From assembly GCF_046105845.1 (NCBI RefSeq), contig NZ_CP151004.1: a stretch of DNA of 64,000 nt. One strand, 5' to 3'. The DNA comes from Escherichia coli (GTDB lineage Bacteria; Pseudomonadota; Gammaproteobacteria; Enterobacterales; Enterobacteriaceae). The notes under the pieces were generated by a model that was given only the letters and a program-made list of their open reading frames with translations, was not told the origin of the DNA and did no database searches. The translations under genes and the position numbers were made by a program. Positions 1-20,138 of the stretch are shown in pieces (position 1 is the stretch's first letter; each line of letters starts with the position of its first letter).

Positions 1-2
1 CA

Positions 3-1079
3 TTGCCAACCGTTGAAAACCAGTTTACGCCGACCACGGCGTGGAGTACTTCCGTTGGTAGCGGCATTGGCAACTTCTATTCCAATCTTCATCCGGCACT
101 GGCGGACAACGTTGTCTATGCAGCGGACCGCGCTGGTTTAGTAAAAGCGCTGAATGCGGATGATGGCAAAGAAATCTGGTCTGTCAGCCTGGCCGAGAAA
201 GATGGCTGGTTCTCTAAAGAGCCTGCATTACTTTCTGGCGGCGTGACCGTGTCTGGCGGGCATGTCTACATTGGCAGTGAAAAGGCGCAGGTTTACGCGC
301 TGAATACCAGCGATGGTACTGTGGCATGGCAAACTAAAGTCGCGGGTGAAGCACTTTCGCGTCCGGTGGTCAGCGACGGTCTGGTGTTAATCCACACCAG
401 TAACGGTCAGTTACAAGCGCTGAACGAAGCTGACGGCGCTGTCAAATGGACAGTTAACCTCGATATGCCTTCGCTCTCTTTGCGTGGCGAGTCTGCGCCA
501 GCAACGGCTTTTGGTGCGGCTGTCGTGGGTGGCGATAATGGTCGCGTCAGCGCAGTGCTGATGGAACAGGGCCAGATGATTTGGCAGCAGCGTATTTCCC
601 AGGCGACCGGTTCTACCGAAATTGACCGTCTGAGCGATGTTGACACGACTCCCGTCGTTGTTAACGGCGTTGTTTTCGCGCTGGCCTATAATGGTAACCT
701 GACGGCGCTTGATCTGCGCAGTGGTCAGATTATGTGGAAACGCGAACTGGGTTCGGTGAATGATTTCATCGTCGACGGCAATCGCATCTATCTGGTCGAT
801 CAAAATGACCGGGTGATGGCGTTGACCATTGATGGCGGCGTTACGCTGTGGACACAAAGCGATCTGTTGCATCGCCTGCTGACTTCTCCGGTGCTGTATA
901 ATGGCAACCTGGTGGTAGGTGACAGTGAAGGTTATCTGCACTGGATTAACGTCGAAGATGGTCGTTTCGTTGCCCAGCAAAAAGTTGATAGTTCCGGTTT
1001 CCAGACTGAACCGGTTGCCGCTGACGGCAAACTGCTGATCCAGGCAAAAGACGGAACCGTGTACTCTATTACACGTTAA
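3..1079 (+). CDS. bamB: Outer membrane protein assembly factor BamB (5' end truncated by window edge)
   Basis: ORF running off window start; beta-propeller PQQ-like repeats; matches E. coli BamB C-terminal portion; synteny with der. Confidence 0.93.
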   Translation: MPTVENQFTPTTAWSTSVGSGIGNFYSNLHPALADNVVYAADRAGLVKALNADDGKEIWSVSLAEKDGWFSKEPALLSGGVTVSGGHVYIGSEKAQVYALNTSDGTVAWQTKVAGEALSRPVVSDGLVLIHTSNGQLQALNEADGAVKWTVNLDMPSLSLRGESAPATAFGAAVVGGDNGRVSAVLMEQGQMIWQQRISQATGSTEIDRLSDVDTTPVVVNGVVFALAYNGNLTALDLRSGQIMWKRELGSVNDFIVDGNRIYLVDQNDRVMALTIDGGVTLWTQSDLLHRLLTSPVLYNGNLVVGDSEGYLHWINVEDGRFVAQQKVDSSGFQTEPVAADGKLLIQAKDGTVYSITR

Positions 1080-1102
1080 TCGTCTCTGTCGTTCACTTTG
1101 AA

Positions 1103-1136
1103 AACGGCTCCTGGACAGGGGCCGTTTTCCTGTTTT
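1103..1136 (+). terminator. Imperfect hairpin followed by T-rich tract downstream of bamB
   Basis: aacggctcctg / caggggccgtt stem then ttcctgttttt. Confidence 0.4.
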
Positions 1137-1196
1137 TAACAACGACACGAATATAGCGTGCGTTGTCTGATGATTTATAAAAATGAGGCTTTAAAC

Positions 1197-2669
1197 ATGG
1201 TACCTGTGGTCGCGCTTGTCGGGCGCCCTAACGTAGGAAAATCCACGTTATTTAACCGTCTAACTCGCACCCGAGATGCGCTGGTTGCGGATTTCCCGGG
1301 TCTGACTCGTGACCGTAAGTACGGTCGTGCAGAAATTGAAGGCCGTGAGTTTATCTGCATTGATACCGGCGGGATTGATGGTACAGAAGACGGTGTAGAA
1401 ACCCGTATGGCGGAACAGTCGCTGCTGGCGATTGAAGAAGCGGACGTCGTACTGTTTATGGTGGATGCGCGCGCGGGCCTGATGCCGGCGGATGAAGCGA
1501 TTGCCAAACATCTGCGCTCCCGTGAAAAACCGACCTTCCTGGTGGCAAACAAAACTGACGGTCTGGATCCCGATCAGGCAGTGGTTGATTTCTACTCGCT
1601 TGGTTTAGGTGAAATCTACCCGATCGCCGCGTCTCACGGTCGTGGCGTATTAAGTCTGCTGGAGCACGTGCTGCTGCCGTGGATGGAAGATCTCGCACCG
1701 CAAGAAGAAGTCGACGAAGACGCTGAATACTGGGCGCAATTTGAAGCGGAAGAGAACGGCGAAGAAGAAGAGGAAGACGACTTCGACCCGCAAAGTCTGC
1801 CAATCAAACTGGCGATTGTGGGTCGTCCGAACGTAGGTAAGTCTACACTCACTAACCGTATTCTTGGTGAAGAGCGCGTTGTTGTTTACGACATGCCTGG
1901 CACTACGCGTGACAGTATCTACATTCCAATGGAACGCGACGGACGTGAGTATGTGCTCATTGACACCGCTGGCGTACGTAAACGCGGCAAAATCACCGAT
2001 GCTGTAGAGAAGTTCTCGGTAATCAAAACGTTGCAGGCCATTGAAGATGCCAACGTGGTGATGTTGGTGATTGATGCGCGCGAAGGTATTTCCGATCAGG
2101 ATCTCTCCCTGCTGGGCTTTATTCTCAATAGTGGGCGCTCACTTGTCATTGTAGTGAATAAGTGGGATGGCCTGAGCCAGGAAGTGAAAGAGCAGGTGAA
2201 AGAAACGCTGGACTTCCGTCTGGGCTTTATCGATTTTGCTCGTGTGCACTTTATCTCAGCCTTGCACGGCAGTGGTGTTGGTAATCTGTTTGAATCAGTA
2301 CGTGAAGCGTATGACAGCTCCACCCGTCGTGTGGGGACCTCTATGCTGACGCGCATCATGACGATGGCTGTTGAAGATCACCAGCCGCCGCTGGTACGTG
2401 GTCGTCGTGTGAAGCTGAAATATGCCCACGCTGGTGGTTATAACCCGCCGATTGTGGTGATTCACGGTAACCAGGTGAAAGACCTGCCTGATTCCTACAA
2501 GCGTTACTTGATGAACTACTTCCGCAAATCGCTGGACGTAATGGGATCGCCGATTCGTATTCAGTTCAAAGAAGGGGAAAACCCGTATGCGAACAAGCGT
2601 AACACCCTGACGCCAACCCAGATGCGTAAACGTAAGCGTCTGATGAAGCACATCAAGAAAAATAAATAA
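1197..2669 (+). CDS. der: Ribosome-associated GTPase Der/EngA (tandem GTPase domains)
   Basis: Two G1 motifs GRPNVGKST; start MVPVVALVG at ATG 1197; 490 aa. Confidence 0.95.
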
Positions 2670-2690
2670 TTATCCGTAAGTATTTTATCT

Positions 2691-2722
2691 GCCATTCCCT
2701 CTATGAATGTAGAGGGAATGGC
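2691..2722. other. 13-bp perfect inverted repeat (gccattccctcta N6 tagagggaatggc) between der and yfgJ
   Basis: Read directly; no adjacent U-tract. Confidence 0.5.
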
Positions 2723-2738
2723 TACCGGAGGAATTCAT

Positions 2739-4351
<1,613 letters not shown>

Positions 4352-4413
4352 TTATTCAGTCGATAGTAACCCGCCCTTCGGGGATAGCAAGCATTTTTTG
4401 CAAAAAGGGGTAG

Positions 4414-4439
4414 ATGCAATCGGTTACGCTCTGTATAAT
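4414..4439 (+). promoter_or_regulatory. guaBA promoter region: candidate PurR-type operator (atgcaatcggttacgc) adjacent to -10 TATAAT (4434-4439)
   Basis: TATAAT hexamer 44 bp upstream of guaB ATG; partial pur-box-like palindrome; recollection of guaB regulation. Confidence 0.4.
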
Positions 4440-4482
4440 GCCGCGGCAATATTTATTAACCACTCTGGTCGAGATATTGCCC

Positions 4483-5949
4483 ATGCTACGTATCGCTAAA
4501 GAAGCTCTGACGTTTGACGACGTTCTCCTCGTTCCTGCTCATTCTACCGTTCTGCCGAATACTGCTGACCTCAGCACCCAGCTGACGAAAACTATTCGTC
4601 TGAATATCCCTATGCTTTCCGCAGCAATGGATACCGTAACGGAAGCGCGCCTGGCTATTGCTCTGGCTCAGGAAGGCGGTATCGGCTTTATCCACAAAAA
4701 TATGTCCATTGAACGCCAGGCGGAAGAAGTTCGCCGTGTGAAAAAACACGAATCTGGCGTGGTGACTGACCCGCAGACTGTTCTGCCAACCACGACGCTG
4801 CGCGAAGTGAAAGAACTGACCGAGCGTAACGGCTTTGCGGGCTACCCGGTCGTTACCGAAGAAAACGAACTGGTGGGTATTATCACCGGTCGTGACGTAC
4901 GTTTTGTTACCGACCTGAGCCAGCCGGTTAGCGTTTACATGACGCCGAAAGAACGTCTGGTCACCGTGCGTGAAGGTGAAGCCCGTGAAGTTGTGCTGGC
5001 AAAAATGCACGAAAAACGCGTTGAAAAAGCGCTGGTGGTTGATGACGAATTCCACCTGATCGGTATGATCACCGTGAAAGACTTCCAGAAAGCGGAACGT
5101 AAACCGAACGCCTGTAAAGACGAGCAAGGCCGTCTGCGTGTTGGTGCAGCGGTTGGTGCTGGCGCTGGTAACGAAGAGCGTGTCGACGCGCTTGTTGCTG
5201 CAGGCGTTGACGTTCTGCTGATCGACTCCTCTCACGGTCACTCTGAAGGCGTTCTGCAGCGTATCCGTGAAACTCGTGCTAAATATCCGGATCTGCAAAT
5301 CATCGGCGGCAACGTGGCAACAGCTGCGGGGGCACGCGCTCTGGCAGAAGCTGGTTGCAGCGCGGTTAAAGTCGGTATCGGCCCTGGCTCTATCTGTACG
5401 ACTCGTATCGTGACTGGCGTAGGTGTTCCGCAGATCACCGCCGTTGCTGATGCAGTAGAAGCCCTGGAAGGCACCGGTATTCCGGTTATCGCTGACGGTG
5501 GTATCCGTTTCTCAGGCGATATCGCCAAAGCTATCGCCGCAGGCGCAAGCGCGGTGATGGTGGGTTCCATGCTGGCAGGTACTGAAGAATCTCCGGGTGA
5601 AATCGAACTCTACCAGGGCCGTTCTTACAAATCTTACCGTGGGATGGGCTCTCTGGGTGCGATGTCCAAAGGTTCTTCTGACCGTTACTTCCAGAGCGAC
5701 AACGCTGCCGACAAACTGGTTCCGGAAGGTATCGAAGGTCGCGTGGCCTATAAAGGTCGCCTGAAAGAGATCATTCACCAGCAGATGGGCGGCCTGCGCT
5801 CCTGTATGGGCCTGACCGGCTGTGGTACTATCGACGAACTGCGTACTAAAGCGGAGTTTGTACGTATCAGCGGTGCGGGCATTCAGGAAAGCCACGTTCA
5901 CGACGTGACCATTACTAAAGAGTCCCCGAACTACCGTCTGGGCTCCTGA
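4483..5949 (+). CDS. guaB: IMP dehydrogenase GuaB
   Basis: 488 aa from [21 protein letters not shown]; CBS domains, catalytic Cys loop [11 protein letters not shown]. Confidence 0.96.
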
Positions 5950-5955
5950 TTCTCT

Positions 5956-5978
5956 TCGCCCGACTTCATGTCGGGCGA
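5956..5978 (+). other. Intercistronic hairpin between guaB and guaA (tcgcccgac ttcat gtcgggcga)
   Basis: 9-bp perfect stem read directly, followed by tttatatt. Confidence 0.45.
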
Positions 5979-6017
5979 TTTATATTATCTGTTTCACTTG
6001 CCTCGGAATAAGCGTCA

Positions 6018-7595
6018 ATGACGGAAAACATTCATAAGCATCGCATCCTCATTCTGGACTTCGGTTCTCAGTACACTCAACTGGTTGCGCGCCGCGTGCG
6101 TGAACTGGGTGTTTACTGCGAACTGTGGGCGTGGGATGTGACAGAAGCACAAATTCGTGACTTCAACCCAAGCGGCATTATTCTTTCCGGCGGCCCGGAA
6201 AGCACCACCGAAGAAAACAGCCCGCGTGCGCCGCAGTATGTTTTTGAAGCAGGCGTACCGGTATTCGGCGTTTGCTATGGCATGCAGACCATGGCAATGC
6301 AGTTGGGCGGTCACGTTGAAGCCTCTAACGAACGTGAATTTGGCTACGCGCAGGTTGAAGTCGTAAACGACAGCGCACTGGTTCGCGGTATTGAAGATGC
6401 TCTGACCGCAGACGGTAAACCTCTGCTCGATGTCTGGATGAGCCACGGCGATAAAGTTACCGCTATCCCGTCCGACTTCGTCACCGTAGCCAGCACCGAA
6501 AGCTGCCCGTTTGCCATTATGGCTAACGAAGAAAAACGCTTCTATGGCGTACAGTTCCACCCGGAAGTGACTCACACCCGTCAGGGTATGCGCATGCTGG
6601 AGCGTTTTGTGCGTGATATCTGCCAGTGTGAAGCCCTGTGGACGCCAGCGAAAATTATCGACGATGCTGTAGCTCGCATCCGCGAGCAGGTAGGCGACGA
6701 TAAAGTCATCCTCGGCCTCTCTGGTGGTGTGGATTCCTCCGTAACCGCAATGCTGCTGCACCGCGCTATCGGTAAAAACCTGACTTGCGTATTCGTCGAC
6801 AACGGCCTGCTGCGTCTCAACGAAGCAGAGCAGGTTCTGGATATGTTTGGCGATCACTTTGGTCTGAACATTGTTCACGTTCCGGCAGAAGATCGCTTCC
6901 TGTCAGCGTTGGCCGGCGAAAACGATCCGGAAGCAAAACGTAAAATCATCGGGCGCGTTTTCGTTGAAGTATTCGATGAAGAAGCACTGAAACTGGAAGA
7001 CGTGAAGTGGCTGGCGCAGGGCACTATCTACCCTGACGTTATTGAATCTGCCGCATCTGCAACCGGTAAAGCACACGTCATCAAATCTCACCACAACGTG
7101 GGCGGCCTGCCGAAAGAGATGAAGATGGGCCTGGTTGAACCGCTGAAAGAGCTGTTCAAAGACGAAGTGCGTAAGATTGGTCTGGAGCTGGGCCTGCCGT
7201 ACGACATGCTGTACCGTCACCCGTTCCCGGGACCAGGCCTCGGCGTTCGTGTACTGGGCGAAGTGAAGAAAGAGTACTGCGACCTGCTGCGCCGTGCTGA
7301 CGCCATCTTCATTGAAGAACTGCGTAAAGCGGACCTGTACGACAAAGTCAGCCAGGCGTTCACCGTCTTCCTGCCGGTACGTTCCGTTGGTGTAATGGGC
7401 GATGGTCGTAAGTATGACTGGGTTGTTTCTCTGCGTGCTGTCGAAACCATCGACTTTATGACCGCACACTGGGCGCATCTGCCGTACGATTTCCTCGGTC
7501 GCGTTTCCAACCGCATTATCAATGAAGTGAACGGTATTTCCCGCGTGGTGTATGACATCAGCGGCAAGCCGCCAGCTACCATTGAGTGGGAGTGA
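6018..7595 (+). CDS. guaA: GMP synthase (glutamine-hydrolysing) GuaA
   Basis: 525 aa; GATase domain then SGGVDSS PP-loop ATPase motif. Confidence 0.97.
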
Positions 7596-7634
7596 GGCTA
7601 TTATTTAAACTATTGTTTTATTTGATTTAGTGAG

Positions 7635-7675
7635 TGCCATTGATGATATTGACTGCATTATCAATGGCATTTTTC
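7635..7675 (+). terminator. Rho-independent terminator of guaA
   Basis: tgccattgat N15 atcaatggca 10-bp stem followed by ttttt. Confidence 0.7.
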
Positions 7676-7928
7676 ATGGTATAAGGCCGACGCTGAATCG
7701 AAGATATAGCAAATACCATGTGACCCTATCAGCAAATGCCATGGTATCGACAACCGGGGGCATTGCAGCGCTGTGCTGATGCCATCGATGCCCGCTTTTG
7801 GTCAGAACCGCTCTCTCGACCCAAGCCTCCAGATCGTTAAATATGCGCCAGAGGAGCACCTCGTGATCGAAATTGTGAACAAGACAGCCGCCGCTCGGAA
7901 TCGAAGTATCCATATGGGTGAATAAAGT

Positions 7929-7957
7929 TTGCGGAAAACACGCTGAGAAAATAGAAA
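7929..7957 (+). promoter_or_regulatory. Weak candidate sigma-70 promoter for the DUF262 gene pair (TTGCGG N17 TAGAAA)
   Basis: Hexamers with 17-bp spacer about 25 bp upstream of ATG 7981; RBS aaggga at 7968-7973. Confidence 0.25.
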
Positions 7958-7980
7958 AGCGTCAATGAAGGGACATAGCA

Positions 7981-9261
7981 ATGGCGATTAACGGAGAGGA
8001 CGGTGTTAGTGCAGTCACCGTGGATGAACTACTCAAGCAAGGCCTTCGGATACCGAACTATCAACGCCCATACAGTTGGGAAGTATCGACCGCTCTACAA
8101 CTGGTGGATGATCTTAGCGAAGCTCTTCGAGATACCGAAAGAAAAGATATTCCCTATGTTTTGGGTGCAATCATTCTTCACGATGATGGTGAGTATCTCA
8201 ATGTAGTCGACGGACAGCAACGTCTGCTGACTTTGCGAATGATTCTTGCGGCCTTAGATCCGATAAATCATCAGATTTCGGTGTCTGGTAACAGCGAAAC
8301 TCCTGTCTCCCTGGTTTGGATAGAGCTTCAAAGGCGCCTGTCGCAGTTGGAAGATAAAAAAGAATTTTTGGATTTTATCTGTCACAAATGTCAGTTGGTG
8401 CGTATTGTGACGGACGATATTGATGAGGCATTTCGTGTCTTTGATTCCCAGAACTATCGCGGCAAACCGCTTGCCCCTCATGACTTGCTCAAAGCACACC
8501 ACCTCCGCGAAATGCACGATGAGTCCGCTGCTATGAAAGTGGCTGTCGTTGAGGCTTGGGAAGCCGTAAATGATGAGGATCTGGACAGGCTTTTTTCTAC
8601 TTTTTTATACCGGATATCCAAGTGGTCACGAGGCGAAAGCTCGCTCGAATTTGCTATTCGGGACATCGGGATGTTTAAGGGAATTTCATCACGATCCCAC
8701 AGATCATTTTCGCCAAATCTGCGATATCACCTTGCAGCACAAGCCGCTATGCCACTTCTAAGTGCATGGGCGGTGTCCTCTACACATGATGCACGAAATG
8801 CCGGGCGCAGCCGCTTTCAGCTTGATGCCCCGATAATCGCTGGGCGCTCATTTTTCGAGATGGTGACATTCATGCTTGACGAATTGAAGATACTGGAAAA
8901 AGAGGTTATCGACAGAGGTTTCAAAAACTTTGGCCCATCTCAAAGTCGCTACCGCTACGTGTACGAATTGTTCATTGCCGCGCTGCTTTGCTATACAAAC
9001 AAGTTTGGCGATGAAGATGTGGATGAAGTGCGAAATAGATTATTCGCATGGGCATATGCCTTGCGGGTCGAGTTACTTCGTGTGCAATTTGTATCTGCTG
9101 ACAACCGAGCTCGAGGTAAAAACGATGCAAATAAATCGCCTTTTGTTTTGCTACGCAACGCGATGACTGGAAGTGTTGTCCGCAAACTTCCAATAGCAAG
9201 TCAGCCATACAACGATAACCACGAAAAGGAACTCGTTGCTTTTATCAAGGGGCTGCAATGA
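7981..9261 (+). CDS. DUF262 (ParB/Srx-like, DGQQR motif) protein, 426 aa, no recognisable nuclease domain
   Basis: Motifs IPNYQRPYSW, VDGQQRLLTL (8209-8223), FRVFDSQNYRGKPLAPHDLLK; stop overlaps next start (ATGA). Confidence 0.88.
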   Translation: MAINGEDGVSAVTVDELLKQGLRIPNYQRPYSWEVSTALQLVDDLSEALRDTERKDIPYVLGAIILHDDGEYLNVVDGQQRLLTLRMILAALDPINHQISVSGNSETPVSLVWIELQRRLSQLEDKKEFLDFICHKCQLVRIVTDDIDEAFRVFDSQNYRGKPLAPHDLLKAHHLREMHDESAAMKVAVVEAWEAVNDEDLDRLFSTFLYRISKWSRGESSLEFAIRDIGMFKGISSRSHRSFSPNLRYHLAAQAAMPLLSAWAVSSTHDARNAGRSRFQLDAPIIAGRSFFEMVTFMLDELKILEKEVIDRGFKNFGPSQSRYRYVYELFIAALLCYTNKFGDEDVDEVRNRLFAWAYALRVELLRVQFVSADNRARGKNDANKSPFVLLRNAMTGSVVRKLPIASQPYNDNHEKELVAFIKGLQ

Positions 9262-11210
9262 GCAAGAAGGAGTTGAGACCCGAACTGATAACAGTAGGCA
9301 AGCTATTCACGGGCTATTATCTGATTCCTATTTATCAACGGAACTATGCTTGGCGGGCCGAACAGATTGAGCAACTTATCAGCGATATTCAAGGCTCGGT
9401 GGTTGGGGGCCAGGACGACTATTTTCTTGGGAACCTTGTTGTAATCAAGCGGGGTAGAGAGGACGAGTTCGAGGTCATAGATGGACAACAACGACTTACA
9501 ACCCTCTATCTGCTTCTGACCTTCCTGGAGCAAGACGGTGAGGGTGGGAAGCTGTCGATTGGCCATGCAGGCCACTTGCAATATGAGTCGCGCGCACGGG
9601 CAACGGAAGCCCTGCGGCGAGTAGCACAGGAGGCGGCTAAGGGGCACGTCCGACCGCAGGGCTCCACGAGTAATGCAGATGCTGGCATCCATGAAGGCTA
9701 CAGCATCATCAATCAGTTCTTCAAACAAAATGAAACCCTTAATCGCTCACGCGAAAAATTCTCCGATTTCTTGCTAAAGAAGGTTACTGTCGTCCGTGCC
9801 TCGCTGCCACCCAATACCGACCTCAATCGCTACTTCGAGATCATGAACACTCGTGGGCAGCAACTCAAGCAGGTTGATATTGTTAAGGCTCGCCTGATGA
9901 GCAAGCTGCCCAATCAATATGAACGCGAATGCTTCGCGTGGGTTTGGGATGCCTGTGCTGACATGGATTCTTATGTCCAGATGTCTCTGACCCGTGGTGA
10001 CACCAGTTTACGAAACAAAGTATTTGGCGATGAATGGTCCTGGCTGGAGGTGACCAGCTTCGCGTCGCTAATGGAAAGTCGTCCGCAATCCGACATCAGT
10101 TCATTAAGGCAATCCTCCGAAGGGGTATCGTTGTCCTTGGATGAGGCGTTGTCAAAATACGCTAAAGAGATCGAGTCAAATTCCACTGAAGACGAGGGCA
10201 ACGAGCGGTTTCGTTCGACTATTGAGTTTCCGGCCTTTCTGCTACACGTTCTAAGAATTATGAAAGGCGATGAGGTCGAAGACGAAGGCCAGCTTGACGA
10301 CAAGCGCCTCATCAAGTCATTTGACGACGCCGTAAATAATGTACCCGATGCTAAAGCCGATTGGGTGCGTAGCTTTGCATTTATGCTTCTTAAGTGCCGT
10401 AACCTCTTCGATGGCTTCATCTTGAAGCGTCAATTCACGGCGAACATCGGTGACGATGGCGATTGGTCTCTCCAGCGATTGAAGAAAGGCGGTGCGGACA
10501 AGAAGCCAGCCCCGACGTACATCCATGTTTTCTCGGCCAGCAATGGAAACTTGGAGGAGGACAGCGGTGCTGACCCACATACCCGAGATGTATTGTTGCT
10601 TCAGTCCATGCTTCGGATTACCTACACTTCTCCGCGAACGATGCACTGGATTACCAAAGTTCTTCGCTGGCTATCCGTTAAAGCCCCTCAAGACGCGAAA
10701 CATGCGGATCTTGCCGATTTGTTGAAGGGGTATGCCCGCAGCAAGGTTAAAGAGACATTCCCCTTTGAGGAAGATCAGCAACCACAAGGGTTTGGTATCA
10801 GCCGTATCGTCTTTTCATACCTCGACTATCTTCTGTTGAGTGATTCCTCAAAACGAGATTTCAAATTTCAGTTCAGAACTTCCATTGAGCACTTTTATCC
10901 ACAGCATCCGGACAAAGAACAGTCGGGCGCGGCTGTTTCAGGTTCTAGCCTTAACCTGCTTGGCAACCTCGCGCTCGTAAGCGTCAGCGCGAACTCAAAA
11001 TTCAGCAATAGCCTTCCCAGAGCGAAGGCCGAAAACTTCAAGGATACGATTGAACTTCAAAGTCCCAAGCTCAAGAGAATGGCGGAAATCGCTCGAAATA
11101 CAAGCTGGGACGATCAGCAGATAACAGCACATCATGAAGAGATGGTGACATTGCTTCGTGATGATGTAAGTCTGGTGGAGGCAAGCGGAAGATCCTACCC
11201 GGGGCGTTGA
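9258..11210 (+). CDS. GmrSD-like protein: N-terminal DUF262 plus C-terminal DUF1524 His-Me-finger nuclease motif, 650 aa
   Basis: IPIYQRNYAW, IDGQQRLTTL (9480-9494), YFEIMNTRGQQLKQVD; C-terminal SIEHFYPQHP (10887-10904) and GNLALVSVSANSKFSN. Confidence 0.88.
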   Translation: MSKKELRPELITVGKLFTGYYLIPIYQRNYAWRAEQIEQLISDIQGSVVGGQDDYFLGNLVVIKRGREDEFEVIDGQQRLTTLYLLLTFLEQDGEGGKLSIGHAGHLQYESRARATEALRRVAQEAAKGHVRPQGSTSNADAGIHEGYSIINQFFKQNETLNRSREKFSDFLLKKVTVVRASLPPNTDLNRYFEIMNTRGQQLKQVDIVKARLMSKLPNQYERECFAWVWDACADMDSYVQMSLTRGDTSLRNKVFGDEWSWLEVTSFASLMESRPQSDISSLRQSSEGVSLSLDEALSKYAKEIESNSTEDEGNERFRSTIEFPAFLLHVLRIMKGDEVEDEGQLDDKRLIKSFDDAVNNVPDAKADWVRSFAFMLLKCRNLFDGFILKRQFTANIGDDGDWSLQRLKKGGADKKPAPTYIHVFSASNGNLEEDSGADPHTRDVLLLQSMLRITYTSPRTMHWITKVLRWLSVKAPQDAKHADLADLLKGYARSKVKETFPFEEDQQPQGFGISRIVFSYLDYLLLSDSSKRDFKFQFRTSIEHFYPQHPDKEQSGAAVSGSSLNLLGNLALVSVSANSKFSNSLPRAKAENFKDTIELQSPKLKRMAEIARNTSWDDQQITAHHEEMVTLLRDDVSLVEASGRSYPGR

Positions 11211-11443
11211 CTTCTTTGAATAACCGCTTTTGGACGAAAGTCCCTTGTGGAGTGCAAGTTGTCAGTCTAAAAGCGTTTTGCGTCAGGCGACACGATCAGT
11301 ACAGCTCCCAGGTTTTCTTACCATGGTATTTTGTGTGGTATCGACATGCAAATATAATGCTATTCTATTGATTTTACAGTGTTTTAAGGCGGCATTAATC
11401 ATCGAGTGGGAATGATTTGACCCTGCACTATGAATGAACAAAA

Positions 11444-11469
11444 CCCTCTGTTACTACAGAGGGTTTTTT
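11444..11469 (+). terminator. Rho-independent terminator between the convergent DUF262 operon and yfgI
   Basis: ccctctg ttacta cagaggg followed by tttttt; A-run on the other side makes it partly bidirectional. Confidence 0.65.
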
Positions 11470-11507
11470 ATCTTCAAGAATTATAGGCTTGAAGTTACTT
11501 ACATCGA

Positions 11508-12047
11508 TTAATTAAACCAGCTGTCCGATTTGTTCTCTTCTGCTTTGCCCACGCTTTTCATCAGATCGCGACCGCCTTCAGTCATATTTCTGTTTGCGTC
11601 AGCTTCAGATTGCACCACATCGGTTTGCGCAGCTTTGTGCTTCAGTTCCTGATCGATAAATTCGTTTTCTCGCTTAACGCGGGCTTCTTCTTTCGCCAGC
11701 GCCAGTTTTTGTTTCTGAATCTCTAAGCTGCGTAGCTCATCTTCATAACTTTGATCGCGTTTTTTGTCCGCAGTGGCTTCGGCATCCAGTTTATCCTGAC
11801 GAGCTTTCTTATTTGCCGCTGCCGTTGCCGCTCTTTTGTTAGCGGCGGCCTGGGCGTTTGCGCGACGTTGCTTCTCTTGCTGGATTTCCCTGTTGCGCTC
11901 CGCGACCCATTCGTCATGCTGCCTTTGCTCTTCATTTTTACCTTGCTGTTCCGCTTCTGCGACAGCAGAGAGTTGATCCTGCAATGATGAGGCGATAGCC
12001 GGATAGCTTAAGGAGGCTAAGATGGCGCAAAGAAAAACTTTCTTCAT
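11508..12047 (-). CDS. yfgI: Periplasmic coiled-coil protein YfgI
   Basis: 179 aa, signal peptide MKKVFLCAILASLSYPAIA, charged repeats; K-12 synteny. Confidence 0.88.
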   Translation of the reverse strand: MKKVFLCAILASLSYPAIASSLQDQLSAVAEAEQQGKNEEQRQHDEWVAERNREIQQEKQRRANAQAAANKRAATAAANKKARQDKLDAEATADKKRDQSYEDELRSLEIQKQKLALAKEEARVKRENEFIDQELKHKAAQTDVVQSEADANRNMTEGGRDLMKSVGKAEENKSDSWFN

Positions 12048-12062
12048 GACTCCTCCTGATTA

Positions 12063-12581
12063 TTAGCTCTTTTCAGGACATTTGGTATTTGGCTGAATAC
12101 GCGTTTCGTTATACGTCGTGGTAATAACAACGGCTAAACCTGTCGTAAACTGGCACTCTTTACCCACCTGGGTGGAGGTATACACTTTGGTGCCTTCCTT
12201 ATACGTTAGAGAAACACCTTCTACTAAGGTTTTATCATTCACCATAGAACCCGCTGCCGCGCCAACAGCTCCGCCGCCAACTGCACCTGCAGTCGTTCCG
12301 GAATTGCTGCCAGACCCCACGTTGTGGCCGATTACACCGCCAGCGACTGCACCAATAAGCGCGCCGAAGGCTTGTGCGTTTCGTTTATTTTGGGAGTTGT
12401 CTACGACAACTTTTGCGGGAAGAATGGAAATAATATTAACGGTTTTAGTTTCTTGTTTGGTATTCAGTTGATCGGTTTGATAAACATCGGCGGCATGATC
12501 ATCAGCATTTGACTGGCATCCTGCCAGAGTGAATGACGCTAACATTGCCAAAGGCAGAAGACATTTTTTAAATTTCATCAC
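12063..12581 (-). CDS. yfgH: Outer membrane lipoprotein YfgH (glycine-zipper)
   Basis: 172 aa, lipobox LAGC, Gly-rich GxxxG tract. Confidence 0.88.
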   Translation of the reverse strand: MMKFKKCLLPLAMLASFTLAGCQSNADDHAADVYQTDQLNTKQETKTVNIISILPAKVVVDNSQNKRNAQAFGALIGAVAGGVIGHNVGSGSNSGTTAGAVGGGAVGAAAGSMVNDKTLVEGVSLTYKEGTKVYTSTQVGKECQFTTGLAVVITTTYNETRIQPNTKCPEKS

Positions 12582-12891
12582 TATTCCTTGTTATACACAT
12601 TACGAAAAATAAGATATTTAAGATCATCAAAAGAGGAAAGTAAATGTATTGCGTATAAAGGAATAGATTAAATTTATTAAAATTCATGTGGAAAATAATT
12701 TATAAAAATACATCATTAAAACATATGTATTAATTTTATATTTATTTCGCAGCCAAACAGGATAAACATCAGTCAGGACAAAGACGTAAAATTTAAGATG
12801 AAAGAATATCTGCCGCTTTGATAATCCCAAAGAGCAAAAGCATCCGACAGCGAGGTGCCGTTATGTTCTGTGAAAGTGGAGAAGGTAACCG

Positions 12892-13083
12892 CTAACGTTG
12901 TACCGGTGATTCGACGGAGAGTGTGGATTGCTGAGCTTCTTTTTTGCTCTGATGGTGCTGCCATGCACCGACGGACGAGTAGATAAAACGGCCAAAGAAG
13001 AAGATAAAGCTGATGAGCAGTACGATACGGGTCATGCGACTGTTAAATCGGTGTCGTTTTCGCATACTGGTTGCCTGACTCAC
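12892..13083 (-). CDS. yfgG: Small membrane protein YfgG (63 aa)
   Basis: 63 aa ORF with one hydrophobic helix; position matches K-12 yfgG. Confidence 0.65.
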   Translation of the reverse strand: MSQATSMRKRHRFNSRMTRIVLLISFIFFFGRFIYSSVGAWQHHQSKKEAQQSTLSVESPVQR

Positions 13084-13293
13084 AAAAGGTTCCTTGAAGT
13101 ATGTCCCACGCTGTGGACGGTACTTACATTAAGGCACAACAGGACAAAATGGTCAATTCTTCGTTATGTAAAAAAGCGTCAGTGGATACATATTTTAATG
13201 TTATGGAAGTTAATTTAATTATTTACAATGATGATGTAATAATGATGAATTAACATGATAAACGTAATAATTCATTAATCAGGGTTATTTTGT

Positions 13294-13307
13294 TTGATAT
13301 ATATCAA
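13294..13307. promoter_or_regulatory. Consensus FNR box TTGAT-N4-ATCAA upstream of pdeF
   Basis: Perfect TTGATatatATCAA about 128 bp upstream of pdeF ATG in AT-rich region. Confidence 0.5.
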
Positions 13308-13434
13308 TTGGAACTTTCATATGACACTTAGAATCAATGCTCTCTATAGTGATGAATAATCATCATTCGAAGTCAGGTGGGATGCCTGTCTGAATACACC
13401 TCCTTCAGGATGTGGGGGATTCTGCTGAGCATCT

Positions 13435-15678
13435 ATGAAACTGAATGCAACTTATATAAAAATACGTGATAAATGGTGGGGGCTTCCGCTGTTCCTGCCT
13501 TCTTTAATCTTGCCCATTTTCGCCCACATTAATACTTTCGCGCATATTTCTTCCGGTGAGGTTTTTCTCTTTTATCTGCCTCTGGCTCTGATGATCAGCA
13601 TGATGATGTTTTTCAGCTGGGCGGCATTGCCAGGGATCGCCTTAGGGATTTTTGTCCGCAAATATGCAGAGCTGGGTTTTTACGAAACGCTCTCATTAAC
13701 GGCTAATTTTATTATCATTATCATTCTCTGTTGGGGCGGTTACAGGGTCTTTACTCCCCGGCGTAACAACGTTTCACATGGTGATACCCGTTTAATTTCC
13801 CAGCGTATATTCTGGCAGATTGTGTTTCCTGCAACGCTGTTTCTGATACTTTTCCAGTTTGCTGCGTTTGTAGGATTACTGGCGAGCAGAGAAAATCTGG
13901 TCGGCGTCATGCCTTTTAACCTCGGGACCTTAATCAATTATCAGGCCTTACTGGTGGGCAATCTGATTGGTGTCCCGCTGTGCTACTTCATCATTCGGGT
14001 GGTGCGAAATCCGTTTTATTTACGTAGCTATTATTCGCAATTAAAACAGCAGGTTGATGTCAAAGTCACCAAAAAAGAGTTCGCGCTCTGGCTACTGGCA
14101 TTAGGTGCGTTGTTGTTGCTGTTATGCATGCCGTTAAATGAAAAAAGCACAATTTTTAGCACCAATTATACCCTGTCATTATTGCTGCCCCTGATGATGT
14201 GGGGAGCGATGCGCTATGGTTATAAGCTGATTTCGCTGCTCTGGGCGGTCGTGTTGATGATCAGCATCCACAGCTATCAAAATTACATTCCCATTTATCC
14301 TGGCTATACCACACAGCTGACCATAACCTCCTCCAGTTATCTGGTATTCTCTTTTATTGTCAATTATATGGCTGTACTGGCAACCCGTCAGAGAGCGGTA
14401 GTCAGACGCATTCAGCGGCTTGCGTATGTGGACCCGGTGGTTCATCTGCCAAATGTTCGCGCCCTGAATCGCGCGTTGCGTGATGCCCCCTGGTCTGCGC
14501 TTTGTTATTTACGCATCCCTGGCATGGAAATGCTGGTTAAGAACTATGGCATCATGCTGCGGATTCAATACAAGCAAAAACTTTCTCACTGGCTGTCACC
14601 CTTGCTGGAACCGGGTGAGGATGTTTATCAGCTTTCGGGTAACGATCTCGCGCTGCGACTGAATACAGAATCGCACCAGGAGCGCATTACCGAACTGGAT
14701 AGCCATCTCAAGCAATTTCGTTTCTTTTGGGATGGAATGCCGATGCAACCGCAGATTGGCGTCAGTTACTGCTATGTGCGCTCGCCAGTGAATCATATCT
14801 ACCTGTTGCTGGGAGAGCTAAATACGGTCGCCGAGCTTTCCATCGTGACCAACGCCCCGGAAAATATGCAGCGTCGCGGGGCAATGTATTTGCAACGCGA
14901 ATTGAAAGATAAAGTCGCGATGATGAATCGGCTACAGCAGGCGCTGGAACACAACCATTTTTTCCTGATGGCCCAGCCGATTACCGGTATGCGTGGCGAT
15001 GTCTACCATGAAATTCTTCTGCGCATGAAAGGTGAGAATGATGAACTGATCAGCCCCGACAGCTTCTTGCCGGTCGCGCACGAATTTGGTTTATCGTCGA
15101 GTATCGACATGTGGGTCATTGAGCATACGCTGCAATTTATGGCTGAAAACAGAGCGAAGATGCCCGCTCACCGTTTTGCGATTAATCTGTCGCCAACCTC
15201 GGTATGTCAGGCTCGTTTTCCCGTTGAAGTCAGTCAGCTGCTGGCTAAATATCAAATTGAAGCGTGGCAACTTATTTTTGAAGTCACCGAAAGTAATGCT
15301 CTGACAAATGTTAAGCAGGCGCAAATCACCTTGCAGCATCTTCAGGAATTAGGCTGCCAGATTGCGATTGATGATTTCGGCACCGGCTACGCCAGCTATG
15401 CGCGGCTTAAAAATGTGAATGCCGATTTGCTTAAAATTGACGGCAGTTTTATCCGCAATATTGTGTCAAATAGTCTGGATTATCAGATAGTGGCGTCGAT
15501 TTGCCACCTGGCGCGAATGAAGAAAATGCGGGTAGTGGCAGAGTACGTTGAAAACGAAGAGATCCGCGAGGCGGTGCTCTCTTTGGGGATCGATTATATG
15601 CAGGGTTATCTTATTGGTAAGCCGCAACCGTTAATTGATACGCTGAATGAAATCGAACCCATTCGCGAAAGTGCCTGA
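13435..15678 (+). CDS. pdeF: c-di-GMP phosphodiesterase PdeF (YfgF); MASE1-GGDEF(degenerate)-EAL
   Basis: 747 aa; N-terminal multi-TM domain, C-terminal EAL motifs. Confidence 0.93.
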   Translation: MKLNATYIKIRDKWWGLPLFLPSLILPIFAHINTFAHISSGEVFLFYLPLALMISMMMFFSWAALPGIALGIFVRKYAELGFYETLSLTANFIIIIILCWGGYRVFTPRRNNVSHGDTRLISQRIFWQIVFPATLFLILFQFAAFVGLLASRENLVGVMPFNLGTLINYQALLVGNLIGVPLCYFIIRVVRNPFYLRSYYSQLKQQVDVKVTKKEFALWLLALGALLLLLCMPLNEKSTIFSTNYTLSLLLPLMMWGAMRYGYKLISLLWAVVLMISIHSYQNYIPIYPGYTTQLTITSSSYLVFSFIVNYMAVLATRQRAVVRRIQRLAYVDPVVHLPNVRALNRALRDAPWSALCYLRIPGMEMLVKNYGIMLRIQYKQKLSHWLSPLLEPGEDVYQLSGNDLALRLNTESHQERITELDSHLKQFRFFWDGMPMQPQIGVSYCYVRSPVNHIYLLLGELNTVAELSIVTNAPENMQRRGAMYLQRELKDKVAMMNRLQQALEHNHFFLMAQPITGMRGDVYHEILLRMKGENDELISPDSFLPVAHEFGLSSSIDMWVIEHTLQFMAENRAKMPAHRFAINLSPTSVCQARFPVEVSQLLAKYQIEAWQLIFEVTESNALTNVKQAQITLQHLQELGCQIAIDDFGTGYASYARLKNVNADLLKIDGSFIRNIVSNSLDYQIVASICHLARMKKMRVVAEYVENEEIREAVLSLGIDYMQGYLIGKPQPLIDTLNEIEPIRESA

Positions 15679-15683
15679 ATAAT

Positions 15684-15710
15684 GCGGGCCGACATTTCTC
15701 GTCGGCCCGC
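15684..15710. terminator. Bidirectional hairpin between convergent pdeF and ppx
   Basis: gcgggccgac atttctc gtcggcccgc, 10-bp perfect stem within the 38-bp gap between stops; no strong U-tract. Confidence 0.5.
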
Positions 15711-15716
15711 AAAGCA

Positions 15717-19329
<3,613 letters not shown>

Positions 19330-19457
19330 TACCACTTTTACTCCGTTTTATTCACGGGACACTGCCTGGATATTATGGCGAGCAATATTGGCAGATGTCC
19401 AACTATGCCAGAAAAGGGGGAAAAAAACTGCTGGAGCTTGCGATTTACAGGTGAATT

Positions 19458-19483
19458 GAAAAACGCCAGCGGCAGAGCTGGCG
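19458..19483 (-). terminator. Terminator downstream of purN
   Basis: cgccagc / gctggcg stem followed by U-run on minus strand. Confidence 0.5.
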
Positions 19484-19500
19484 CTTTAACTACGGGGGCA

Positions 19501-20138
19501 TTACTCGTCGGCAGCGTAGCCCTGCGGCGGCAGACGTTGACCATCCAGCCACGCGGCGTTTTCGTGCATTTTCAGACGACCATCGGCAAACCAGCTAATC
19601 ACCAGTGGATAAATAGCGTGTTCCTGGGTTTGCACGCGGGCGGTGATGTCATCTTCCGTATCACCAGCAAATACCGGGACTTTCGCCTGTAAAATAACCG
19701 GGCCACCGTCCAGTTCATCGGTGACGAAATGCACCGATGTACCGTGCTCCTCATCGCCATTTTCCAGCGCCTGACGATGGGTGTGTAATCCGGGATATTT
19801 CGGCAGCAGAGAAGGGTGAATGTTCAGCAAACGCCCGGCATAGTGGGAGACAAACGCCGGGCTGAGAATGCGCATAAAACCAGCCAGCACGACCACATCT
19901 GGTGCGTACATGTCGATTTCATGAATCAACTCCCGGTCATAGGCTTCACGACTGTCAAACGCGCTGGCGATGAGCGTATGCGTTGCAATACCCGCCTGGC
20001 GGGCGCGTTCAAGGCCGAACGCGTCGGCCTTATTGCTGAAAACTGCCCGTACGGTGCCTTTAATTTTGTTGGTTTTGCAGGCGTCAATAATTGCCTGCAA
20101 ATTACTTCCGTTGCCGGAAATAAGCACCACAATATTCA

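Follow-up and report, generated by a model that had tools for sequence, protein, structure and literature searches.

Here, an insertion at the 3' end of guaA in Escherichia coli is identified as a cassette of 3,820 bp that is bounded by attachment (att) sites and carries the operon of a predicted two-subunit type IV restriction system. It lies in a stretch of 64,000 nt (contig NZ_CP151004.1 of assembly GCF_046105845.1, referred to below as the window), and its two genes, here termed P1 and P2, encode proteins of the DUF262 family. The ends of the cassette match the att sites of the genomic island GIsul2, and copies delimited at the same points are found on Klebsiella plasmids and in other E. 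coli chromosomes. Taken as a whole, the reading of this element as an att-integrated cassette with a two-subunit type IV restriction operon that can be moved in trans is given a probability of about 0.75. Both components are of known kinds; what is new, to a modest degree, is their combination, a restriction operon within an att-flanked cassette that lacks an integrase and that plasmids and chromosomes share.

The insert extends from just past the left copy of the core GAGTGGGA through the end of the right copy (Table 1). Alignment of the window to a K-12-type genome, in which the guaA-yfgI spacer is 92 bp, reveals a clean insertion, with K-12 spacer sequence resuming 3' of the right core. Each core lies within one copy of the longest direct repeat of the region (7566-7595 and 11386-11415, 73% identity, spacing 3820 nt), and the same core has been defined experimentally for GIsul2 at the 3' end of guaA (PMC9376610). 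A first-pass annotation of this DNA had reported two co-oriented open reading frames (ORFs) of 426 and 650 amino acids between guaA and yfgI; both are present, with their stop and start codons overlapping as ATGA. The limits that it gave for the insert, 7676-11443, need revision, the actual start being ~85 nt earlier and the actual end ~30 nt earlier. Similarly, what it took for the guaA terminator at 7635-7675 is a hairpin that belongs to the insert, and the native terminator has been displaced downstream.

The arms of the cassette hold repeats of a putative integrase-binding type, arranged in GIsul2 geometry, and four of the ten ATGGTAT sites in the window fall within them. Measured from the core, the cassette repeats are found at +85, +122 (inverted) and +150 on the left and at -81 and -69 on the right. 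Those of a GIsul2-like island in E. coli RSHH22 are at +147, +183 and +211 on the left and -80 and -68 on the right, and those of GIsul2 itself, on plasmid R485, are at +145, +182 and +210 on the left, with the same repeat pair present on the right. A left-arm repeat spacing of 37/28 nt is common to the cassette, the RSHH22 island and GIsul2 (R485), although compared with GIsul2 the cassette left arm is missing ~61 bp beside the core and a fourth repeat. Local alignments of the arm blocks exceed shuffles (z 4.2-6.1), and that of the right arm to the right end of GIsul2 is identical at 24 of 29 positions (z 5.8). Furthermore, when attP is reconstructed as ATCATCGAGTGGGAGTGAG, it agrees with the attLR site of GIsul2 in 16 of 19 positions, with a junction stretch reading ...CATTAATCATCGAGTGGGAGTGAGGCTATT...

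At least 454 plasmids, nearly all of them from Klebsiella, also carry the whole cassette, with an identity of 96.2%. Most of the matching plasmid records (n = 468) are typed as conjugative, and those examined are IncFIB(K)/IncFII plasmids in which the cassette sits between a segment rich in insertion sequences (IS) and phd/yefM-umuDC genes. Homology between plasmids and window runs from 7581 to 11410, i.e. from core to core, and beyond the cores the plasmids have no homology to guaA or yfgI. The majority of the chromosomal copies in E. coli share ~96% identity with the window, and their annotation uses the protein accessions of the plasmid copy. One such copy, in E. coli 19SZHZ713Rt (96% to the window), differs from a Klebsiella plasmid copy by 9 mismatches in 3,827 bp (99.77% identity), and this match extends between the cores only. 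Cassette-free plasmids diverge exactly at the right core, but have another gene on the left. A distant blastn search for a parent element in plasmids with each arm alone returned only the cassette itself. The two cores, the arm-repeat spacing and the core-delimited plasmid copies together indicate site-specific integration by a tyrosine recombinase, with the integrase either acting in trans or since lost.

In E. coli, the guaA site is uninterrupted in 4,567 of 5,426 complete genomes (84%), and K-12 likewise lacks the insert, which bears out the earlier description of an accessory insertion with a DUF262 gene pair. The full insert is found in 78 of these genomes, at one locus in all of them, and a partial insert in 3 more (IS elements or deletion); IS elements have led to decay of the cassette in strains HN257, OZ547461 and TUM2820. 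In TUM2820 (L007, 9001-10640) the first ~440 bp of the cassette are left, followed by ISKpn26, and the remainder has been deleted along with yfgI. Other large inserts occupy the identical point in the remaining ~780 genomes. With some insertion in ~16% of genomes, including a prophage and a GIsul2-like island with candidate defence cargo, the 3' end of guaA is an insertion hotspot, as had been suggested.

The island and the prophage illustrate which elements use this attB. In RSHH22, where guaA and yfgI are ~25 kb apart, the GIsul2-like island has the gene order int, LuxR-family regulator gene, helix-turn-helix (HTH) regulator gene, repA, trbJ/L and higA, and the integrases of the island and of GIsul2 on R485 share 87% identity. 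Part of the island cargo is an 'ABC-three component system' with an AAA ATPase and a Fic/DOC protein, and other candidate defence cargo therefore also uses the guaA site; yfgI of this strain is split by IS911. In E. coli E2348/69 the distance from guaA to yfgI is ~40 kb, and the same attB holds a podovirus-type prophage with an adjacent tyrosine integrase. Its core, attgagtgggaatgatt, is that of phage vB_EcoP_ZX5, and the integrase is 53-55% identical to GIsul2-family integrases, so that the guaA-targeting integrases of phages and islands belong to a single family.

The first-pass annotation attributed the acquisition of the insert to homologous recombination of its flanks. On that account the cassette would itself lack mobility signals, and would have entered and spread in E. 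coli only through recombination of guaA and yfgI sequences, which is considered unlikely. It does accommodate the presence of one locus in all 78 occupied genomes, and spread of occupied loci by recombination is common in E. coli. It is also in keeping with the lack of any integrase, transposase or tRNA in or beside the insert, a point on which that annotation was correct: there is no tRNA in 1-20000 and no homologue of three guaA-targeting integrases, used as queries, anywhere in the window. Recombination of the flanks does not, however, account for an insert that ends exactly at two GIsul2 cores and whose arms hold integrase-type repeats in conserved geometry, nor for a core-delimited cassette on more than 450 Klebsiella plasmids that lack guaA/yfgI homology outside the cores, or for an identity of 99.77% between E. 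coli and plasmid copies that stops at the cores. Three cassette alleles (99.9%, 97.9% and 96.1% identical to the window) share one junction, and in E. coli Res13-Sevr-PER07-33 (L025, 4410-4570) the junction is unchanged next to a divergent guaA-yfgI spacer that is ~57 bp longer 3' of the right core. The three alleles, the Res13 spacer and the core-bounded plasmid identity are fitted better by repeated site-specific integration than by a single event with subsequent flanking recombination, although homologous recombination may spread the occupied locus between E. coli strains.

As the cassette has no integrase, it is not a GIsul2 island and is at most an att-bounded non-autonomous unit like CR2-sul2, an integrase-less element that is located between two such sites and that the GIsul2 integrase also excises and integrates (PMC9376610). 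A static deletion remnant of a larger GIsul2-like island, with integrase and transfer genes lost in place and its att ends now fossil, is an alternative in which the cassette no longer moves. That integrase-bearing GIsul2-like islands and prophages use the guaA attB in other strains, that the left arm is without ~61 bp by the core and the fourth GIsul2 repeat, and that IS-driven decay is seen in three strains all agree with such an origin, but it remains the more doubtful view, given that both cores and all five proximal repeats have been kept in three alleles differing by 2-4% and that the same ends recur in plasmid context. Furthermore, relatives of the operon at 88-91% identity are homologous over 7809-11229 only, both arms (7592-7808 and 11230-11403) being absent. 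The operon thus lies between att arms of separate origin, and its occurrence elsewhere without them argues that it was captured between att sites and is not the leftover of a known island. These relatives are located away from guaA, and the operon itself is therefore not tied to this site.

The surroundings of the cassette on plasmids deserve separate mention. To its left in Klebsiella plasmids, as in pKP4831-1 (L005, 7457-7995), is a gene fragment with an Rx4H (HEPN-like) motif, and this flank ends ...GATAATAGAGTGGG after ATGGCAT repeats, resembling a GIsul2-type right end (R485: ...TTACAATAGAGTGGG); the arrangement suggests that two remnants, each bounded by att sites, lie in tandem here between IS1 and an IS3-family element. 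In pLGP4 (MF116002.1, IncFIB/FII; L026, 2985-8827) an IS1 abuts a complete guaA, which is followed by the cassette. The guaA gene of pLGP4 does not come from the J53 recipient, since it is 98.7% identical to K-12 guaA, and rightward from the left core pLGP4 shares 99.85% identity with the copy usual in Klebsiella plasmids. Such a structure suggests that DNA has been exchanged between plasmids and a chromosomal guaA::cassette locus.

The proteins encoded by the operon have the domain composition of a paired restriction enzyme. P1 matches the Pfam families GmrSD_N (DUF262, NTPase-like; residues 19-175, 1.5e-27) and DUF7834 (residues 186-414, 9.9e-55), the latter helical and standing in place of GmrSD_C, so that P1 is without a nuclease domain, as expected for an A subunit. 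P2 matches GmrSD_N (residues 15-214, 4.9e-33) and GmrSD_C (DUF1524, a His-Me finger nuclease; residues 521-631, 4.1e-14). The QR, DGQQR and FxxxN motifs are intact in both proteins, and those of P1 (Q28 R29, 77-81 and F154..N158) are invariant across 28 homologues. The nuclease residues E544, H545, N570, N579 and N584 of P2 are invariant in the alignment, E544-H545 aligning with E582-H583 of GmrSD2, the nuclease subunit of the system GmrSD_ECOR17. With dN/dS values of 0.11-0.16 for P1 and 0.19-0.26 for P2, both genes are under purifying selection. Among the candidates scored, 2,241 proteins belong to the P1 family at E<=1e-5, and both Pfam domains are present in all of the top 120 listed. In five of five diverged contexts examined, a P1 homologue is directly followed by a P2 homologue: Bordetella avium, Pseudoduganella danionis and metagenome contigs adjoining a type I restriction-modification (RM) system, at 58-68% identity, and two closer relatives.

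Comparison with experimentally studied systems places the pair more precisely. The ECOR17 sequences and residues 1-400 of TgvA and TgvB were rebuilt from the supplements of the respective papers and compared by blastp. P1 is 30.7% identical to GmrS1 (424 columns, 1e-56) and 26.8% to TgvA (1-400; 377 columns, 8e-28), and P2 is 33.2% identical to GmrSD2 (675 columns, 1e-89) and 28.3% to TgvB (1-400; 414 columns, 6e-34). These cognate pairs score far above the cross pairs: matches to the single-chain GmrSD of CT596, and of P1 to GmrSD2 or TgvB, are limited to ~70-95 N-terminal DUF262 residues, and those of P2 to GmrS1 or TgvA to an N-terminal DUF262 match of up to ~245 alignment columns. Table S5 of PMC11411939 includes, among its TgvAB hits, proteins near-identical to P1 and P2 that come from Shimwellia blattae, Pectobacterium brasiliense and plasmids of K. 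pneumoniae. Alleles of both also appear in Supplementary Data 6 of PMC12373910, that of P2 (WP_000037308) in cluster CLS_016 and that of P1 (WP_016246209) in CLS_017. These two clusters are evidently one of three two-gene systems among the 20 commonest enterobacterial GmrSD clusters, their pairing being deduced from the adjacency of the genes. On sequence grounds, then, P1 and P2 can be assigned to clusters CLS_016/017 as a catalogued member of a known two-subunit type IV restriction class (TgvAB / GmrS1-GmrSD2). The full-length cognate homology to the tested TgvAB and ECOR17 doublets agrees with the defence function ascribed to the genes earlier.

In PADLOC 2.0.0, which includes no TgvAB model, the best matches are to HEC-06 (P1 E 1.7e-28, P2 E 9e-37), and 'Orf5' and SspE also match; the best-scoring stretches correspond to the N-terminal DUF262 part of models of 530-790 positions, with 2-3 separate stretches per match. 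An NCBIfam search gave no match for P1 or P2. An AlphaFold2 (AF2) model of P1 (predicted local distance difference test score, pLDDT, 74; residues 156-289 poor) has its best matches in SspE and DndI, both members of the GmrSD family; the model is of moderate quality and only confirms a GmrSD-family fold.

By analogy with the tested relatives, the pair probably cuts sugar-modified phage DNA. TgvAB of Vibrio cholerae restricts T-even phages via glucosylated 5-hydroxymethylcytosine (5hmC), and this activity requires TgvA and TgvB together, with a DGQQR motif in each and the His-Me site in TgvB (PMC11411939, PMC11014532). GmrSD_ECOR17 restricts T2 and T6, as well as T4 from which ip2 and ip3 are absent; T4 Ip3 blocks it, and it needs both genes as well as E582/H583, mutation of which abolished defence (PMC12373910). 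An enzyme directed against another modification, i.e. non-glucosylated 5hmC, other hypermodified bases or phosphorothioate DNA, appears the less plausible alternative. The phosphorothioate sensors SspE and DndI are the best structural and Protein Data Bank (PDB) sequence matches, but that match is confined to the shared DUF262 core, and there are no ssp or dnd genes nearby. GmrSD subfamilies do vary in substrate (BrxU compared with GmrSD), and identity to the relatives specific for glucosylated 5hmC is only ~30%; nonetheless, the full-length cognates, TgvAB and the ECOR17 doublet, both depend on glucosylated 5hmC.

It could also be asked whether the pair is mainly a toxin-antitoxin or plasmid-addiction module, in which P1 restrains a toxic P2 nuclease and defence is secondary. 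Its abundance on large conjugative Klebsiella plasmids, near stability genes, would suit such a role, as would the gross toxicity of the ECOR17 doublet upon induction. That toxicity, however, needs both genes, and the single genes are neither toxic nor protective (PMC12373910). The pair is chromosomal too, in many taxa, and an addiction role is accordingly thought very improbable.

Several observations weigh against the reading favoured here, of a restriction cassette movable in trans. The window contains no homologue of the three guaA-targeting integrases, and a search in which the two flanks of the plasmid copy were joined found no plasmid with an uninterrupted target. To the left of the cassette, Klebsiella plasmids are rich in IS elements, so IS-mediated events have also shaped its context. 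With respect to function, representatives of all cluster groups were synthesised and tested on T-even phages in PMC12373910, where the outcome for CLS_016/017 is given in Supplementary Fig. 8 only, and just 5 of 12 additional systems were active on these phages (PMC12373910). Substrate specificity may differ from that of the tested relatives, because identity to them is only ~27-33%. Finally, a promoter scan returned no strong sigma-70 consensus site on the + strand upstream of P1, and the position of the P1 promoter is for that reason only presumed.

These data allow a model of the cassette to be proposed. The 3,820 bp unit would enter an attB that overlaps the last codons of guaA by site-specific recombination, bringing in one operon of two translationally coupled genes. 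P1 is a ParB/DUF262-type nucleoside triphosphate (NTP)-binding protein and P2 adds the DUF1524 His-Me endonuclease to the same N-terminal module; together they would form a modification-dependent type IV enzyme. By homology, the DUF262 modules of both subunits would sense hypermodified phage DNA, most likely the glucosyl-5-hydroxymethylcytosine of T-even phages, and nucleotide binding or hydrolysis would license the P2 nuclease, so that incoming DNA is cut; P1 alone or P2 alone should give no protection. The complete attL and attR, each with its GAGTGGGA core and arm repeats, would let a resident GIsul2-type integrase excise and integrate the cassette in trans, like CR2-sul2. Such trans-mobilisation would explain how E. 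coli chromosomes and the IncFIB(K) plasmids of Klebsiella came to exchange the cassette. The most specific form of the model, a non-autonomous 'defence cassette' that resident GIsul2-type integrases move in trans from conjugative IncFIB(K) plasmids of Klebsiella to the guaA attB of enterobacterial chromosomes and back, is put forward tentatively.

The coordinates of the cassette and its neighbours are collected in Table 1. A search of Rfam at E<=1 found nothing in 7400-11700. A minus-strand ORF at 7674-7913 (79 aa, antisense in the left arm) was considered as a gene or integrase remnant and rejected; it is probably no gene, because stops interrupt it in the 96% allele of Klebsiella and E. coli.

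Table 1. Features of the guaA-yfgI region of the window.
Feature	Position	Strand	Remarks
guaB	4414-5949		upstream neighbour in window
guaA	6018-7595		host gene; 3' end is the integration site
guaA 3' end, chromosomal side of attL	7566-7595	+	left copy of 30-nt imperfect direct repeat; aligned to K-12 empty site
Left att core GAGTGGGA	7584-7591	+	shortly before guaA stop codon; matches GIsul2 core (PMC9376610)
Cassette left arm	7592-7808	+	hairpin and three arm-type repeats
Hairpin	7632-7672		insert-borne, now 3' of guaA; dG -19.1, z -3.3
Left-arm repeats	7676-7682; 7713-7719; 7741-7747		ATGGTAT; ATACCAT; ATGGTAT
Region travelling with operon	7809-7980	+	presumed promoter and 5' untranslated region; DNA homology to a relative (L019, 90.5%) begins at 7809
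P1	7981-9261	+	426 aa, TgvA / GmrS1-like subunit
P2	9258-11210	+	650 aa, TgvB / GmrSD2-like subunit
Cassette right arm	11230-11403	+	direct arm-type repeats ATGGTAT 11323-11329 and GTGGTAT 11335-11341; L019 homology stops at 11229
Right att core GAGTGGGA	11404-11411	+	within degenerate guaA 3'-end copy 11386-11415
Native guaA/yfgI intrinsic terminator	11440-11467	+	outside insert, now 3' of P2; identical to K-12 spacer; terminator scan; dG -19.4, z -5.4
yfgI, yfgH, yfgG		-	beyond P2, followed by pdeF

The composition of the two genes was compared with a background of 31 window ORFs (GC 0.531+-0.021, GC at third codon positions (GC3) 0.581+-0.041, value like the codon adaptation index (CAI-like) 0.701+-0.039). 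P1 has a GC of 0.470, a GC3 of 0.454 and a CAI-like value of 0.568 (z about -3.4), and P2 has 0.502, 0.559 and 0.587 (z about -3.0), respectively. The first-pass annotation had called the codon usage of both atypical, quoting CGA-AAT-AGA-TTA (9031-9042, RNRL) and CGG-ATA (8047-8052), which are in frame. This is borne out by CAI-like values that are the lowest of the window for both genes, but in GC3 only P1 is atypical and P2 is not. By GC alone the insert (0.48) deviates less than a native stretch: the lowest GC of the profiled sequence (0.36-0.42) is at 12250-13500, the core yfgH-yfgG-pdeF intergenic region.

P1 and P2 belong to a class of two-subunit type IV restriction enzymes that was described only recently and in which the nuclease subunit needs a nuclease-less paralogue. 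With more than 450 records, their subfamily is one of the most frequent on Klebsiella plasmids, and the range of phages that it acts on is therefore relevant to phage therapy directed at Klebsiella and E. coli. Of greater interest is mobility, as a defence operon that comes with no integrase is enclosed by intact GIsul2-type att sites and has near-identical copies on plasmids and chromosomes. If the proposed mobilisation is correct, the trans-mobilisation known for CR2-sul2 would extend from antibiotic-resistance to anti-phage cargo, and the integrases that spread sul2 would also spread phage defence.

Among known mobile units, the cassette is closest to GIsul2 and CR2-sul2 (PMC9376610), with which it has in common integration at the 3' end of guaA, the core GAGTGGGA and the geometry of the arm repeats. 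It resembles CR2-sul2 in being a short cargo unit that is enclosed by two att sites and encodes no integrase, and cis-mobilisable elements (CIMEs) are similar in general. It differs in that its cargo is a restriction system rather than a resistance gene, and there is no ISCR2. Furthermore, CR2-sul2 is nested in or beside an integrase-bearing island, whereas the cassette stands alone at attB, and its mobility is predicted from sequence.

Among known restriction systems, the ECOR17 doublet (CLS_003/004) likewise consists of a DUF262-only protein followed by one with DUF262 and a His-Me nuclease, and cognate homology is full-length, but it falls into another sequence cluster at ~30% identity, with P1 at 426 aa compared with 483 and P2 at 650 aa compared with 680. 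TgvAB (VC1767/VC1766, V. cholerae VPI-2) has the same division of domains, TgvA with DUF262 only and TgvB with DUF262 and DUF1524, and the MacSyFinder model of its authors picks up near-identical copies of P1 and P2 as homologues. TgvAB is, however, set inside a type I RM operon, whereas P1 and P2 are alone in an att-flanked cassette, and the sequences are distant. The single-chain GmrSD of CT596, Eco94GmrSD, BrxU, SspE and DndI share with P1 and P2 the NTPase-like DUF262 sensor with its QR, DGQQR and FxxxN motifs, and the DUF1524 His-Me nuclease of the single-chain GmrSD family is present in P2. The single-chain GmrSD enzymes are one polypeptide and similar over ~90 N-terminal residues, whereas in P1/P2 a nuclease-less DUF262 paralogue with DUF7834 is always found upstream of the nuclease subunit.

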